Positions 11,222 through 44,519 of a stretch of DNA of 64,000 bases are shown here, in pieces. Source of the stretch: Leptonemataceae bacterium (GTDB taxonomy: Bacteria > Spirochaetota > Leptospiria > Leptospirales > Leptonemataceae); assembly GCA_965227295.1 (NCBI GenBank), contig OZ245742.1, positions 1,824,001-1,888,000 on the forward strand. Reading direction: 5' to 3'. Position numbers and translations under genes: made by a program. A model generated the notes under the pieces. That model was not told where the DNA came from. It did not search any database and saw only the letters and a program-made list of their open reading frames with translations. The number at the start of each line of letters is the position of its first letter. Within the stretch, counting starts at the first letter, position 1.

Positions 11222-11341
11222 AACCACCGAAGCGCCGAGGCCACCGAGTTTAAGAAATCAGAGAGCACACATAGCCCGAACGCTTTCGGTTACGAATACT
11301 CTTCCCCATCTTTCCTCGGCGACCTCGGAGCCTCGGTGGTC
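11222..11341. mobile_element. ~120-bp MITE-like element with GxxExxY-type terminal inverted repeats
   Basis: Left ACCACCGAAGCGCCGAGGCCACCGAG, right CTCGGCGACCTCGGAGCCTCGGTGGT. The right end, including AATACTCTTCCCCATCTTTCCTCGG, matches the GxxExxY right end at 40913-40960. Confidence 0.7.
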
Positions 11342-37555: not shown

Positions 37556-38935
37556 ATGGCCACGCATTCCCGCACTCGCGAAGAACTCATTCGAGAAATC
37601 AAAGACTCCGGTACGCAGAAGATCAAAGTCGCCATCACGGACATCGACGGGGTCCTGCGCGGCAAGTACATCCACGTCGATAAATTCCTGGGCGCCCTCG
37701 AAAAAGGCTTCGGCTTCTGCAACGTCGTCTTCGGCTGGGACGTCGCCGACGAAGTCTACGACTACGTTCCATACACCGGCTGGCACACGGGATACCCCGA
37801 CGCGAACGCGCGTATCGATGAAGGCACCTATCGTCGCGTGCCGTGGGACGAACACGTGCCGTTTTTCCTGGCCGACTTCGAAAGCGAAGGCGGCGGACCG
37901 CTGGCCGTATGTCCGCGCCAGGTGTTGAAGCAGGTCATCGCAAAGGCCGCGTCCATGGGCTACAGCGCGAAGTTCGGCGTAGAACTCGAGTTCTTTAACT
38001 TCGAAGAGAATCCCGCCTCGTTGCACGAAAAAGGGTTTCGGGACATGGATTCGCTCACGCCGGGCATGTTCGGTTATTCCCTGCTGCGCAGCTCGTACGA
38101 TCAGCCTTACTTTCGAAACTTAATGGACGAACTCGGTCAGTTCGATGTGCCGCTCGAAGGCCTGCACACGGAAACCGGTCCCGGCGTTTTCGAAGCCGGC
38201 ATCTACGTCGCCGATGCCCTGGAAGCCGCCGACCGCGCGGTGTTGTTCAAGAGCGGGGCGAAAGAGATCGCGTATCGTCACGGCATTGTTCCGACGTTCA
38301 TGGCGCGCTGGAATACGAAGCTGCCTGGTTCCAGCGGTCACGTGCACCAGAGCCTGTGGAACCAGGACGGCTCGCAGGCGCTCTTTCACAACGAGAACGA
38401 TCCGCATAAAATGAGCGATATTTTCAAAAATTACCTGGCCGGTCTCATCCACTGTCTCCCGGAAGTGCTGCCCATGCTCGCGCCGAACGTGAACAGCTAC
38501 AAACGGTTGGTCGAGGGTTTCTGGGCGCCGACGACCATGACCTGGGGTGTCGACAATCGTACGGTGGCGCTGCGGGTAATCCAGGGCTCCGAGAAATCCA
38601 CGCGCGTCGAAGGGCGCATCGGCGGCGCGGACATCAATCCCTACCTGGCCGTCGCCGCGTATCTGGCCGCGGGGCTCTACGGCATCGAGAAGGGGCTCAA
38701 GCTGGAGCAGGCGGCCGTCACCGGCAACGGCTACGAAATCAAGGACCCGCACATTCCGCGACTCGCTAACAATCTCAAAGATGCAGCTAAGATGATGCGC
38801 GATTCCCTGGTCGCCCGGGACCTCTTCGGCGCGGACTTCGTCGAACACTACACCACCACGCGACTCTGGGAAGTCCGCCAGGCCGAGCAGGCCGTAACGG
38901 ACTGGGAGTTGAAGCGGTACTTTGAGATTATCTGA
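37556..38935 (+). CDS. glutamine synthetase-family gamma-glutamyl ligase (PuuA-like)
   Basis: DIDGVLRGK, ELEF, HTETGPG, GSSGHVHQS, NSYKRL, WGVDNR, EGRIGGADINPY. ATG 37556. Confidence 0.92.
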   Translation: MATHSRTREELIREIKDSGTQKIKVAITDIDGVLRGKYIHVDKFLGALEKGFGFCNVVFGWDVADEVYDYVPYTGWHTGYPDANARIDEGTYRRVPWDEHVPFFLADFESEGGGPLAVCPRQVLKQVIAKAASMGYSAKFGVELEFFNFEENPASLHEKGFRDMDSLTPGMFGYSLLRSSYDQPYFRNLMDELGQFDVPLEGLHTETGPGVFEAGIYVADALEAADRAVLFKSGAKEIAYRHGIVPTFMARWNTKLPGSSGHVHQSLWNQDGSQALFHNENDPHKMSDIFKNYLAGLIHCLPEVLPMLAPNVNSYKRLVEGFWAPTTMTWGVDNRTVALRVIQGSEKSTRVEGRIGGADINPYLAVAAYLAAGLYGIEKGLKLEQAAVTGNGYEIKDPHIPRLANNLKDAAKMMRDSLVARDLFGADFVEHYTTTRLWEVRQAEQAVTDWELKRYFEII

Positions 38936-38961
38936 GCGTTTTCACCGCTTCGAAGAATAGA

Positions 38962-38996
38962 TTGACACCGAGGACCGAGGCCCCGAGGGAAAGATG
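38962..38996 (+). repeat. solo GxxExxY-type terminal repeat
   Basis: TTGACACCGAGGACCGAGGCCCCGAGGGAAAGATG matches the GxxExxY left end at 40371. Confidence 0.75.
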
Positions 38997-38999
38997 AGT

Positions 39000-39071
39000 C
39001 CTATCTCTTGCCCGGCGCGCAGCGTCCGGTGCGGCCGTGAGGACGCAGCGCGTTAGCGCGCAAGAGATGGG
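39000..39071. repeat. nested palindromic (REP-like) hairpin
   Basis: Outer ATCTCTTGC/GCAAGAGAT and inner GCGTCC/GGACGC stems. Confidence 0.5.
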
Positions 39072-39176
39072 CCGCAAATGCAACCAGCATAACACAGGAT
39101 GTGTTATGCGTATGAACTGAAAACAGGAACCGTGCACAGGTGAAGGCAGGATGCCTGAGCCGGTGCGCAACTATAT

Positions 39177-40361
39177 ATGAAAGAGATACATAAATTTAGT
39201 TTCCCCACCCAGATCTTCTTCGGCGCGGGTGCGCGGCATTTGCTGGCGCGCGAGTTAAAACAACGCGGCGTGGAGCGGCCGGTCATCGTCACCGATGACA
39301 TGATCGCGAAGCTGCCGTTCACCGGCGAACTCAAGGACGAGCTGACCCAGGCCAATCTGCAAACGGCCGTTTACGCCGCGCCGTCCGGCAATCCGGTGGA
39401 GTCCCACGTAACGAACGGCGCCGCGGCCTATCGCGAGCATAAGGGCGACGCCATCATCGCCATGGGCGGCGGCGCGGCCGTGGACATCGCGAAAGCCGTG
39501 GCGGTGATGATCGATCATCCCGGCAAACTCTTCGATTACGAGGACGGCCGGGAAGGCGCGCCGCCGATTCTCAAAGAAAAAATTCCCGTAATGGTCGCCA
39601 TCCCGACGACCGCCGGTACCGGCAGCGAGGTCGGGCGGAGCACGGTTATCTCCGAAGAAGATACGCACATCAAACGCATCATCTTCTCGCCGTACATTCT
39701 GCCCGTCGCCGTCTTCGCCGATCCGGAACTGTTGCTCGGCCTGCCCGCCGGCGTTACCGCCGCCACCGGCATGGACGCACTGACGCACTGCATCGAAGCG
39801 CGCCTGGCGAAGGGCTTTCATCCGTTCTGTGACGGCCTGGCCATGGAAGGCATGCGCCTGTGCGCGGAATCGCTGCGAGACTGCGTAACTTTCGCCGAAC
39901 AGAAGTCTGGCGCGACTCCGGAACATGTGCATGCGCGCGGGCTCATGCTCAACGCCTCGATGATGGGCGCCGTCGCTTTTCAAAAAGGCCTCGGTGTTAC
40001 GCACAGCCTGGCGCATTCGCTCTCGACGGTCCACGATCTGCATCACGGCCTCGCGAACGGCATTATGCTCGACTACGCCATGAAGTTCAACGCCGACGCC
40101 CCGGAGCTGGCGGACGTCTTTTCTCAGATGGCCCGCATCGTTCGCGCGCCGCAAGAAACACCCGCCGGCTTCGTGGACTGGCTGGCGAAACTCAAGGCCG
40201 ACTTAAAGATTCCCGCGGGGCTCAAGTCTCACGGACTCGGCACGGAGAAGATCGACGACCTCGTTAAGTTCGCCTCGCTGGATCTTTGCCATACGCTGAA
40301 TCCGAGGGGAGTGAGCGAGGGGGACTTCCGGTCGATGTACGAGGCCGCGCTGAGTGCTTGA
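39177..40361 (+). CDS. iron-containing alcohol dehydrogenase
   Basis: GGG..D, IPTTAGTGSE, DALTHCIE, HSLAH, HHGLAN. Confidence 0.95.
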   Translation: MKEIHKFSFPTQIFFGAGARHLLARELKQRGVERPVIVTDDMIAKLPFTGELKDELTQANLQTAVYAAPSGNPVESHVTNGAAAYREHKGDAIIAMGGGAAVDIAKAVAVMIDHPGKLFDYEDGREGAPPILKEKIPVMVAIPTTAGTGSEVGRSTVISEEDTHIKRIIFSPYILPVAVFADPELLLGLPAGVTAATGMDALTHCIEARLAKGFHPFCDGLAMEGMRLCAESLRDCVTFAEQKSGATPEHVHARGLMLNASMMGAVAFQKGLGVTHSLAHSLSTVHDLHHGLANGIMLDYAMKFNADAPELADVFSQMARIVRAPQETPAGFVDWLAKLKADLKIPAGLKSHGLGTEKIDDLVKFASLDLCHTLNPRGVSEGDFRSMYEAALSA

Positions 40362-40370
40362 AGAGGGATG

Positions 40371-40960
40371 GACTCCGAGGACCGAGGGGTCGAGGGGAAG
40401 ATGGAGGGATGTTGGTTGATTTGAGTTGATTTGCAATTTTTTGGAGAGGGCGATGAAAAAGGTGGAACGATTTGCGGCTTTGGTGCCCTCTCCGGGCATG
40501 AGATTTCCGCGTGGATCGTTTCCGACCGACCGCATCACCGAAAAAATTATCGGCTGTGCCATTGAAGTTCATCGAAATCTCGGTCCGGGGTTACTCGAGT
40601 CGGCCTACGAACTTTGTCTGGTATATGAGTTGGAAAACGCGAACTGCTCGTTTCAACGCCAGGTAGAACTCCCGCTGACTTACAAAGGACTTCATCTGAG
40701 TGCAGGATACAGGATGGACTTCATTGTTGAGGGACGCGTTATCATTGAGATCAAAGCCGTCGAATCGATCAAGCCGGTGCATTACGCCCAGCTGATGACA
40801 TACATGCGCCTCAGCCAGAAACCGACAGGCTTGCTACTGAACTTTCACAGCCCCTACATGCGCACCGGCATCAAAAGACTGAGACTCCAGACATAACAAA
40901 CCAATGTTCATGTATGAAATACTCTCCCATCCTCCCCTCGGTTCCTCGGTCCTCGGAGTT
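40371..40960 (+). mobile_element. GxxExxY cassette bounded by ~40-bp imperfect terminal inverted repeats
   Basis: Left GACTCCGAGGACCGAGGGGTCGAGGGGAAGATGG; reverse complement of the right end AACTCCGAGGACCGAGGAACCGAGGGGAGGATGG. Confidence 0.75.
40453..40896 (+). CDS. GxxExxY protein (PD-(D/E)xK nuclease-like)
   Basis: [52 protein letters not shown]. Start 40453 (GGAG RBS) or 40498. Confidence 0.95.
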
Positions 40961-40971
40961 AACGATTCCCC

Positions 40972-41835
40972 ATGACCTCCCCGTTACACATAGGCGTCGC
41001 CGCGTGTTTCTTTCACCCGGATCCGGAGCGGAACATCTTCAAAGGCAAGACCCTGCTCTACGCCGAAGAATCCATGCTGCACTATCTCATGCGGAGCGGG
41101 GCGTTGCCGCTCCTGCTGCCGTCCGCCCACGCCGGTTTCGACGCCGCGGCGGTGATCGACGGAGTGGACGGCCTCTTGCTCCAGGGCGGCTCCGATGTTT
41201 CGCCCTTAAGTTACGGTGAAGAGCCATTAGACGAAGCCTGGGCCGGCGACCGCGTGCGGGACCTCTACGAAATCGAACTGATCCGTGCGGCCCTCGCCGC
41301 CGGCAAACCGGTCTACGGCATCTGCCGCGGGCACCAGATCCTCAACGTCGCCCTCGGCGGATCACTCTATCAGGACATCGGCACGCAGTTGCCGCAGGCG
41401 ATCGTTCACCGCGATCCCGACGTCTACGATCAACTGCGCCACGAAGTGCGCATCGAATCAACGAGCCGGCTCGGCGATCTATACCGAAAGTATTACGGCG
41501 AGGAAATCAGGAGCGGCACGGTGAACTCGGTGCATCACCAGGCGGTGAAGGACCTTGCGCCGGGATTTGCCGTGGAAGCGCGCTCCGCTGAGGACGGCAT
41601 CATCGAAGCGATTCGCCTGGTTGATCCCGCCGCGGCGAATCTTCCGCAAAACACGCCGGATCACGCGGATCCGCCGTATGCGGCGGGCGTGCAGTGGCAT
41701 CCGGAGTTTCAGTATGCCGGGCGGGACGACGCGCTGCTTTCGCCGGAGCCCATGCTCACGGAATTCTTACACGAGGCTTCCCGCCGCAGACTCCAAAAGG
41801 AAAAAAGTCTCGCGGAGGAGAGCCGCTCCCACTAA
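40972..41835 (+). CDS. gamma-glutamyl-GABA hydrolase family (peptidase C26, PuuD-like)
   Basis: GLLLQGGSD, GICRGHQ, VNSVHHQ, VQWHPE. Confidence 0.93.
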   Translation: MTSPLHIGVAACFFHPDPERNIFKGKTLLYAEESMLHYLMRSGALPLLLPSAHAGFDAAAVIDGVDGLLLQGGSDVSPLSYGEEPLDEAWAGDRVRDLYEIELIRAALAAGKPVYGICRGHQILNVALGGSLYQDIGTQLPQAIVHRDPDVYDQLRHEVRIESTSRLGDLYRKYYGEEIRSGTVNSVHHQAVKDLAPGFAVEARSAEDGIIEAIRLVDPAAANLPQNTPDHADPPYAAGVQWHPEFQYAGRDDALLSPEPMLTEFLHEASRRRLQKEKSLAEESRSH

Positions 41836-43826: not shown

Positions 43827-44519
43827 TCACATGCTTTGCACGATGTTGTGGCGACGGAGTTCCACGCGGAACTCACGCGATGCATACTGCACGCCCTGAT
43901 CCGAATGGAACATCAGCCCCTTGCCCGGCGGCCTCGTCTTCACGGCCATATCCAGCGCCGCCACGGCGAGTTGCGCAGGCATACGATCCTGCACGTCCCA
44001 ACCGATGATGCGACGCGAGAACAGGTCCATCACAACGCATAGATAGACCCAGCCAATGCGCGTTTTCAGGAACGTGATATCCGAAGCCCAGACACGATTA
44101 GGTTGCGCCACGTTGAAGTTACGGCCGAGAAAGAAACTCCTCGCGATGAGCTTCCATGAACTCGAAAACTACAGTTCTCTCGATAGCATGGCCGCGAACT
44201 TTTTTAGGATCGTGTTATCCATCTTCAGTTCGGCGTTCTCTTTACGAAGCTGCTCCAGTTCCTCTTCGACGCTGAGCTTGCTGCGCTTCTCTTTGCCTTT
44301 TTCTTCTTTGGCCTCTCGATCCATATACTCCTTCTTCCACTCACGCAAAGTCCAGTAGCTGATCCCCAGCGACGCCGACACTTCTTTGAGGGTGCGCTCA
44401 CCCTCCACGACGGCCTTCACGGCCTCCTCGCGGAATTCCCGCGGATACCTCTTCTTTTTCACTCTGACCTCCTTATTCAGGACGCCCGATTTAGTGTATC
44501 AGTTTTCGGGGATAAGCCA
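43827..44519 (-). mobile_element. truncated IS3-family element
   Basis: IRL TGGCTTATCCCCGAAAACTGATACAC at 44519. OrfA 44169-44462 (RYPREFREEAV, HTH and leucine zipper). OrfB is internally deleted, keeps WASDITF and HSDQG, and lacks the C-terminal E motif and IRR. Confidence 0.9.

Follow-up and report, generated by a model that had tools for sequence, protein, structure and literature searches.

The spacer between the Fe-ADH and PuuD genes of the Leptonemataceae bacterium genome studied here (G000) is occupied by a block of DNA at positions 40362–40971 of the window (the whole 64,000-nt stretch of contig OZ245742.1 that was analysed), which alignment of the same junction in related genomes shows to have entered the spacer in this lineage. 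The block holds two inverted arms around a small, intact GxxExxY nuclease gene, and the explanation we favour, with about even confidence, is that it is the gene-bearing member of a family of selfish elements which combine a nuclease with a repeat and have gene-less derivatives. Reading it as a mobile element is supported by comparative genomics, which points to the insertion itself, to arms found family-wide around GxxExxY genes, to gene-less derivatives, and to the co-occurrence of gene and repeat.

A repeat search and a reading of positions 39900–41400 identified two inverted arms of 33 nt each (88% complementary, with 522 nt between them), and in each of these three CCGAGG-type words are followed by a purine-rich tail (GAAGATGG / GAGGATGG). 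The left arm, of a type we refer to as the F1 family, lies at 40372–40404 on the forward strand and comprises three words, ACTCCGAGG ACCGAGG GGTCGAGG, and a GGAAGATGG tail, and the right arm at 40927–40959 is also of F1 type but on the reverse strand, where it is the reverse complement of the left arm type (ACTCCGAGGACCGAGGAACCGAGGGGAGGATGG). A preliminary description of this DNA had noted inverted repeats bracketing the gene, and its arms are real, but conserved sequence runs some 10–12 nt past the ends it reported, into an outer left flank (AGAGGGATGG, 40362–40371) found directly 3′ of the Fe-ADH stop codon (TGA, 40359–40361) and an outer right flank (TAACGATTCCCC, 40960–40971) which adjoins the PuuD start codon at 40972, so that the block fills the whole spacer from the ADH stop to the PuuD start. 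The outer left flank matches the purine-rich outer consensus common to both sides of the short elements described below. We note that the PuuD start is preceded by the C-rich TAACGATTCCCC and has no obvious Shine-Dalgarno sequence, with the nearest GGAG being the arm terminus 13 nt 5′ of it, and that likewise no obvious Shine-Dalgarno sequence is seen 5′ of the start of another gene following an element insertion (gene f, G000 4007025).

Between the arms, the intact GxxExxY / PDDEXK_3 gene (40453–40896, forward strand, 147 aa; recognised as an ORF with profile matches) is preceded by a T-run and a Shine-Dalgarno-like GGAGAGG (40443–40449, forward strand) located 3 nt 5′ of the ATG which may function as such, and the T-run and GGGAGAG motif upstream of the ORF start is found again within short gene-less elements. 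The gene is followed by a 3′ inner segment (40897–40926) and, when a profile of 40 short F1 elements was compared with the window, positions 1–79 of the profile aligned to 40959–40878 on the reverse strand (nhmmer E 7.2e-10); the alignment runs past the right arm, so the 3′ inner segment of the gene-bearing element is also aligned. The preliminary description had further remarked that the gene is more AT-rich than its neighbours and interrupts a catabolic operon between Fe-ADH and PuuD, and both points hold: the element has a GC content of 51.0% compared to 62.0% for ADH, 62.8% for PuuD and 59.8% for the genome, and the neighbouring genes, with Pfam matches to Gln-synt_C, Fe-ADH, Peptidase_C26 (PuuD-like) and Aldedh, are a puu-like amine catabolic cluster. 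It had also stated that no DDE, HUH or integrase gene is present, and in searches of Pfam and NCBIfam we found PDDEXK_3 / GxxExxY to be the sole ORF match in the element, with no other ORF giving a transposase-like match. Elsewhere in the window there is a solo F1-type arm (ACACCGAGGACCGAGGCCCCGAGGG, 38965–38989, forward strand) between the glutamine-synthetase-like and Fe-ADH genes, within their spacer, for which no facing partner was found, and a gene-less element of 116 nt with arms of a third family (F3, ACCACCGAGGCGCCGAGG...), which form a facing pair at 11224–11339 (G000 1835224–1835339). Two short ORFs lie ~3 kb downstream of the element (43827–44462, reverse strand), and by eye these resemble IS3-family transposase pieces (OrfA-like MKKKRYPREFREEAVKAV... 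plus an integrase-core-like fragment).

The ORF at 40453–40896 matches both PF13366 PDDEXK_3 (E 8.8e-43, 145.8 bits, cut-off 22) and TIGR04256 GxxExxY (E 2e-44, 150.7 bits, cut-off 35). In an alignment of 76 homologues, G46xxE49xxY52, D89 and K101 do not vary and E99 shows at least 90% conservation, and with D89, E99 and K101 all present this copy keeps the D...EIK residues as had been proposed. An AlphaFold2 model produced from 76 sequences has a pLDDT of 89.1 with a low-confidence N-terminal extension (residues 1–26), and the best matches in structure searches using the model are all PD-(D/E)xK nucleases (Z values of 7.9 for BpuSI, 7.8 for Cas4 SSO0001, 7.7 for the Spirosoma restriction-endonuclease-like protein 3ijm and 6.4 for Hjc). 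The model therefore supports a predicted nuclease fold with an intact D-ExK for the GxxExxY protein, but as the Z values are middling and the fold matches generic (best Z 7.9), no subfamily can be assigned and no mechanism named. A PDB sequence search with the nuclease gave one match at E 0.04 which we disregarded. A profile search of the genome found only two GxxExxY genes in G000, and the second of these (978925–979266, reverse strand) is framed by inverted arms of another sequence, TTTGCCACGGAGGCACAGAGGACACAGAG, which we refer to as F2.

We compared the ADH–PuuD junction by a DNA search of 30 relatives followed by local re-alignment, and found that the spacer of 610 nt in G000 is 18 nt in G002 (like G001, a genome of the same genus), ~40 nt in G014 and 6 nt in G007, with the two genes overlapping in G005 (ATGA). 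The search for an empty ADH–puuD junction that the preliminary description had suggested was thus successful in four relatives, and junctions of 0–40 nt mark the block in G000 as an insertion. In the other congener, G001, the same junction contains an unrelated insert of ~750 nt with its own ORF (ATGAAAACGAAAAGG...; L004, G001:C2, locus ~650–1500), and as this and the G000 element are found at exactly the ADH–PuuD junction, it has been hit twice independently. No ADH–PuuD join lacking the element is present in the contigs of two DNA/unknown runs for this organism, both from a single study. One of these runs may be the genome's own source, and an empty allele missing from contigs alone proves nothing. 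Contig joints of ~530–550 nt and at 38988/40935 were considered as excision products and rejected, with other genomic copies matching both arms.

The same comparison was made for short elements using a 7-kb region of G000 which contains four of these and both congeners, whose genes have only ~70–80% identity to those of G000. Three short G000 elements sit in spacers which are 90–145 nt shorter in G001 (38 nt in G001 vs 128 nt in G000 between genes a and b, −4 vs 141 nt between f and g, and 120 vs 239 nt between g and h). At the f–g junction, G000 keeps the stop and start codons of two genes that overlap in G001, but has 9 nt, the element and 19 nt between them. This arrangement suggests that the purine-rich and T-rich outer flanks arrived with the element, which would place the true ends ~10–20 nt outside the arms. 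The flanks of the GxxExxY loci of G000, G001 and G002 show no synteny with one another.

When we searched G000 for the three arm cores allowing up to 2 mismatches (F1 CTCCGAGGACCGAGG, F2 CCACAGAGGCACAGAG and F3 CCACCGAGGCGCCGAGG), 298 F1, 57 F2 and 66 F3 matches were found (~420 in total, with some F2/F3 matches counted under both families and a few 2-mismatch matches in coding DNA), and these form 141 facing pairs. This is the search of both ends against the whole genome which had been proposed earlier, and it finds the arm present hundreds of times; a three-word pattern similarly gave 254 matches compared to 3 for a backwards-read control, so the repeat is far beyond chance. Most facing pairs are intergenic hairpin elements of 100–180 nt (lengths cluster at 107–111, 119–136 and 159–178 nt), and only two pairs have lengths of 201–2,800 nt, these being the gene-bearing elements of 586 nt (F1) and 446 nt (F2). 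The single genome G000 therefore includes two cognate gene/arm pairs, F1 with CCGAGG words and gene 1 and F2 with CACAGAG words and gene 2, plus the gene-less F3 family, and comparison of the arms shows each nuclease gene to be paired with an arm family of its own. Our best reading of the more than 100 short hairpin elements is that they would be gene-less relatives of the gene-bearing element. Arms are also mosaic in G000, with stacked F1 + F3 arms, an F3/F1 hybrid element, arms of four or more words and minimal hairpins of 33 nt. Such forms are seen at G000:C1 239215–239400, 2417225–2417450, 4520365–4520530, 2230040–2230072 and 3109470–3109505, and include an arm with a four- to fivefold expansion of the GGGAACGT unit, an F1 arm stacked 15 nt ahead of an F3 arm, an F3 left arm with an F1 right arm, and two abutting arms that make up the 33-nt minimal hairpins.

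The short elements are extragenic. In a rough ORF-based gene map, 107 of the 121 paired elements are intergenic where 15% would be expected at random, the median distance to each neighbouring gene is 12–13 nt, and spacers between divergent genes are depleted (8/107 elements vs 19% of all spacers), with no bias in orientation relative to transcription (17 vs 14). The outer flanks on both sides are C-poor, with purines prevailing at −12 to −5 and T at −4 to −2. The preliminary description had found no target-site duplication at this one locus, and this can now be extended to 92 elements, which as a set show no duplication beyond the shuffled level (at k = 4 there was 1 observed and 1 shuffled, and at k ≥ 5 there were 0/92), with duplications of 2–3 nt falling beyond the resolution of this test. 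Upstream stop codons are very often 0–10 nt from the arm in G000 (mode 9–10), and many flanks consist of TGA or TAA plus AGA-rich sequence. At two junctions the stop triplet is found again at the far boundary (TAA...TAATG at f–g and TGA...ATGA at ADH–PuuD), and these two cases might point to elements that insert at stop codons and duplicate 3 nt.

Within the elements the third word is ~90% conserved, though it was not used in detection, and left and right arms match at variable positions no more often than shuffled pairings (0.355 observed vs 0.39 expected). As the third word is kept and there is no left–right co-variation, it is the words that are conserved and not merely the pairing. The cores have a median identity of 0.49 and their folding is only weakly above that of shuffled sequences (median z −0.83, n = 40), and RNAalifold analysis of 40 aligned elements recovered the arm pairs and nothing else. 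No two copies are near-identical (core identity to the nearest neighbour reaches 0.81 at most, with a median of 0.70), and so no recent burst or movement is seen.

Further analysis of GxxExxY loci indicates that arms are a trait of the gene family. At least 583 confirmed loci were found in one scan, and we examined 80 of these from many phyla, 77 with enough flank, among which 61 have an inverted repeat between the upstream and downstream sequences with a score of at least 30 while 16 score below 30. Nearly all of these repeats are of the form (TTC)ACC-ACAGAG-N-CACAGAG-N-CACAGAG, with a word variant that is specific to the element and common to both arms (e.g. CACGAAG, CACAAAG, CGCAGAG or CACCGAG); the CCGAGG variant of G000 is a divergent one with 7+8-nt spacing. 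Because the consensus is common across loci, mismatched arm pairings also score at least 30 in 48/77 cases, and we therefore added a strict word test in which 45/77 loci have inward-facing arrays on both sides compared to 4/77 in the opposite orientation and 0/77 at a distance of 600–800 nt. A backwards-read control is invalid for periodic arrays (it gave 19/77 in the strict word test), and we have relied on the orientation and distance controls instead. By these measures an association between gene and arms is shown across phyla. The question raised earlier of whether every GxxExxY copy has such repeats receives a mixed answer, as most of these diverse loci do but 16/77 score below 30 and the genes of G001 and G002 have none. 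As a general rule, GxxExxY homologues do not lack flanking repeats, the repeats do not occur independently of genomes carrying the gene, and the gene is not syntenic and vertically inherited at the G000 site without an empty allele, any of which the preliminary description had considered as evidence against its proposal.

The arrays are unevenly distributed among the relatives. The three-word pattern gave 7 matches in G001 (control 3) and 5 in G002 (control 2), both of the same genus as G000, compared to 33 in G006 (control 4), 14 in G020 (control 0) and 11 in G008 (control 3), with 0–9 matches in most other relatives. Together with the empty sites in the congeners, these counts show a lineage-specific expansion of the arrays. 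A long tandem array in G010 ((CAGAGAAT)n, G010:C1:1639130–1639310) is one-directional, inflates the pattern count and is not an inverted-arm element. When loci from 15 relatives were scored against mismatched controls, 8 were above every control, 1 was tied and 6 were not. A search for the exact F1 16-mer in 185,579 species genomes, a collection from which our own genome may be absent, found at least 78 loci, all single matches with the third word in 1/78 and a partner arm in 0/78; we considered whether these might be real elements and read them as chance. As those listed are isolated matches, the CCGAGG variant appears private to this lineage.

A GxxExxY match is present in 51 of 201 genomes from the phylum. 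Array-rich genomes (with at least 10 arrays above the control) number 11, and 10 of these 11 carry the gene, so that 10/51 gene-positive genomes are array-rich compared to 1/150 gene-negative genomes, in a tally that includes non-independent kin and in which AAG-type words escape the pattern. The remaining 41 gene-positive genomes have fewer than 10 arrays by the three-word pattern. By way of illustration only, among the matches listed the gene has an array at a distance of up to ~60 nt on each side in G062, G157 and G000, and on a single side in G055, G071 and G178. The array-rich genome without a GxxExxY match is G106 (99% complete, with 21 three-word arrays compared to 2 in the control), and G206 from the same genus as G106 has 4 gene matches; G106 may have lost the gene while its repeats survived. 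Outside these genomes, tblastn gave no match to the nuclease in 50,697 phage records at E 1e-5, and a match in 8 of 72,556 plasmid records, mostly very large replicons.

In the explanation we favour, the element consists of two inverted arms of three phased 7–8-nt words enclosing one small PD-(D/E)xK nuclease gene, with CCGAGG being the variant here of a widespread CACAGAG-type word. The nuclease would bind the word arrays in a sequence-specific manner and cut at or near the arm or hairpin, so spreading or maintaining the elements in the way that RAYT does for REPINs, using metal-dependent PD-(D/E)xK hydrolysis in place of HUH tyrosine transesterification and leaving no target duplication. By this analogy we infer that the nuclease may recognise and mobilise the arms, as suggested in the preliminary description. 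That description's candidate autonomous member stands to the extent that the block looks like the full-length form of the gene-less elements, more than 100 in number, whose arms it shares, but autonomy presumes such recognition and mobilisation of the arms by the protein, with no recent mobility seen among the copies, and autonomy and any current activity of the element are what we infer. A wider proposal, which we advance tentatively and with lower confidence, is that this might be a new class of mobile DNA in which the sole protein, a PD-(D/E)xK nuclease of ~120–150 aa, reads phased 7–8-nt words at both ends, moves or copies the element without target duplication, and seeds long-lived gene-less hairpins in many phyla, with paralogues co-diversifying with their words (CCGAGG vs CACAGAG). 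If this were true, elements of ~450–600 bp (446 and 586 nt between the outer arm cores) would be the smallest autonomous elements known.

The gene may instead be a passenger. The hairpins would then be REP/BIME-like repeats which are kept or spread by another host function (hairpin replication slippage, recombination or an unrelated enzyme), and GxxExxY would be a selfish or accessory gene, e.g. a defence or addiction nuclease, which travels inside them without acting on them. F3 arms without a gene, the hybrid F3/F1 and stacked arms, the mosaic arms of variable word number, the GxxExxY genes without arms in the congeners and the array-rich G106 without a gene all fit with this. We nonetheless think it unlikely, as GxxExxY is the sole cargo between arms in G000, twice and with a different arm family each time, and because the gene–arm association holds in many phyla with 10/11 array-rich genomes carrying the gene. 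An endonuclease of the homing type is quite improbable in our view. A free-standing GxxExxY homing-like enzyme would cut empty or arm-containing sites, and recombinational repair would then copy the cassette into them, using the arms as repair homology or target mimics. This is consistent with the predicted PD-(D/E)xK fold and intact catalytic residues, the lack of target duplication and the non-syntenic loci among congeners. However, the insertion sites share only a compositional flank consensus which seems to arrive with the element, and there are two gene copies to more than 100 gene-less elements.

An explanation at the level of RNA also needs to be weighed, in which the arms would act as a long stem of the operon transcript (IVS/REP-like) which is cut by RNase III or stabilises upstream mRNA so that the cassette is tolerated in operons, and host selection would keep the short elements as regulatory or insulating hairpins. 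As RNA the arms can pair in a stem of ~38 bp around the ORF (MFE −230.5 kcal/mol, z −3.9), and we found no promoter-like or terminator-like sites inside the element. A terminator role was rejected, as there is no terminator-like site in 38900–41100. The GxxExxY gene is co-oriented with its upstream neighbour at 54/75 loci and with its downstream neighbour at 58/73 (by a rough ORF heuristic), and this and the lack of an internal promoter suggest that the element gene is probably expressed by read-through from the operon. While these findings, and the placement of elements a median of 12–13 nt from genes and often right after stop codons like REPs, are in keeping with a function in RNA, the words are conserved while variable arm positions do not co-vary, one word type is kept across phyla, the short elements have no orientation bias (17 vs 14), and their cores exceed shuffled sequences only weakly in folding (median z −0.83). 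The pattern of conservation speaks for recognition of the words. Furthermore, 0/97 GxxExxY loci are flanked by 23S rRNA (blastn of the G000 LSU), no Rfam family matches 38500–41500 at E up to 1, and the four-helix IVS protein TIGR02436 has no match in G000. We consider a role in RNA to be less likely again than a passenger gene, if not as improbable as homing, and retain the selfish nuclease-plus-repeat element as the favoured explanation.

GxxExxY is a very widespread family without a known function (51/201 genomes of the phylum and at least 583 loci in one scan), and linking it to phased word arrays as a defined DNA partner makes that function directly testable. With two gene/arm pairs of different words, G000 is a good test bed with a built-in specificity control. 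Passages of earlier papers give PF13366 as of unknown function (PMC3424549) and place a GxxExxY domain adjoining a CRISPR-associated RT (PMC8934634), and we found no description of a GxxExxY gene–arm system in the full texts of the literature searched. Should the nuclease drive the repeats, the REPIN/RAYT lifestyle would have been invented a second time, independently and with a different chemistry, and a large class of intergenic hairpins found inside operons or right after stop codons would be explained.

The G000 elements can be compared with several known systems. MITEs and their autonomous IS or transposon parents (e.g. Correia and Nezha) have terminal inverted repeats, and short gene-less copies outnumber the gene-bearing parent. 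The same is seen here, where the more numerous short copies share the ends of the gene-bearing copy and presence or absence differs between related genomes, but G000 elements have no target-site duplication and no DDE, HUH, serine or tyrosine recombinase, and their arms are far better conserved than the cores with no near-identical copies such as would be left by a recent MITE burst. BIMEs are mosaic REP clusters of enterobacteria, and the stacked arms, two-family hybrid arms, variable unit number and minimal hairpins of G000 resemble them, although the phased-word sequence logic and the associated nuclease gene are different. The intervening sequences of 23S rRNA can carry an S23p / four-helix-bundle ORF and so also place a small ORF within inverted repeats able to form a long transcript stem, but none of 97 GxxExxY loci is in 23S rRNA, and the protein belongs to another family.

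The closest parallels we draw are with REPINs, REP doublets accompanied by the REP-associated tyrosine transposase RAYT (PMC3116915, PMC3337134 and PMC5581495). In both systems an enzyme gene of low copy number lies between inverted copies of a repeat that also makes up extragenic hairpin doublets, tens to hundreds of them. Every enzyme paralogue comes with a separate repeat family (here gene 1 with F1 and gene 2 with F2), and the elements leave no target duplication, sit after the 3′ ends of genes and avoid divergent promoter spacers. The differences lie in the enzyme, which here is a PD-(D/E)xK nuclease of ~120–150 aa whereas RAYT is a Y1 HUH (IS200/IS605-like) transposase, and in the repeat, which here consists of arms of three phased 7–8-nt words whereas REP is a single palindrome with a GTAG/CGTC tag. 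RAYT genes are vertically inherited at a conserved locus, in contrast to the G000 element which has no conserved locus in congeners and a datable insertion, and GxxExxY genes with similar arms are found in many phyla.
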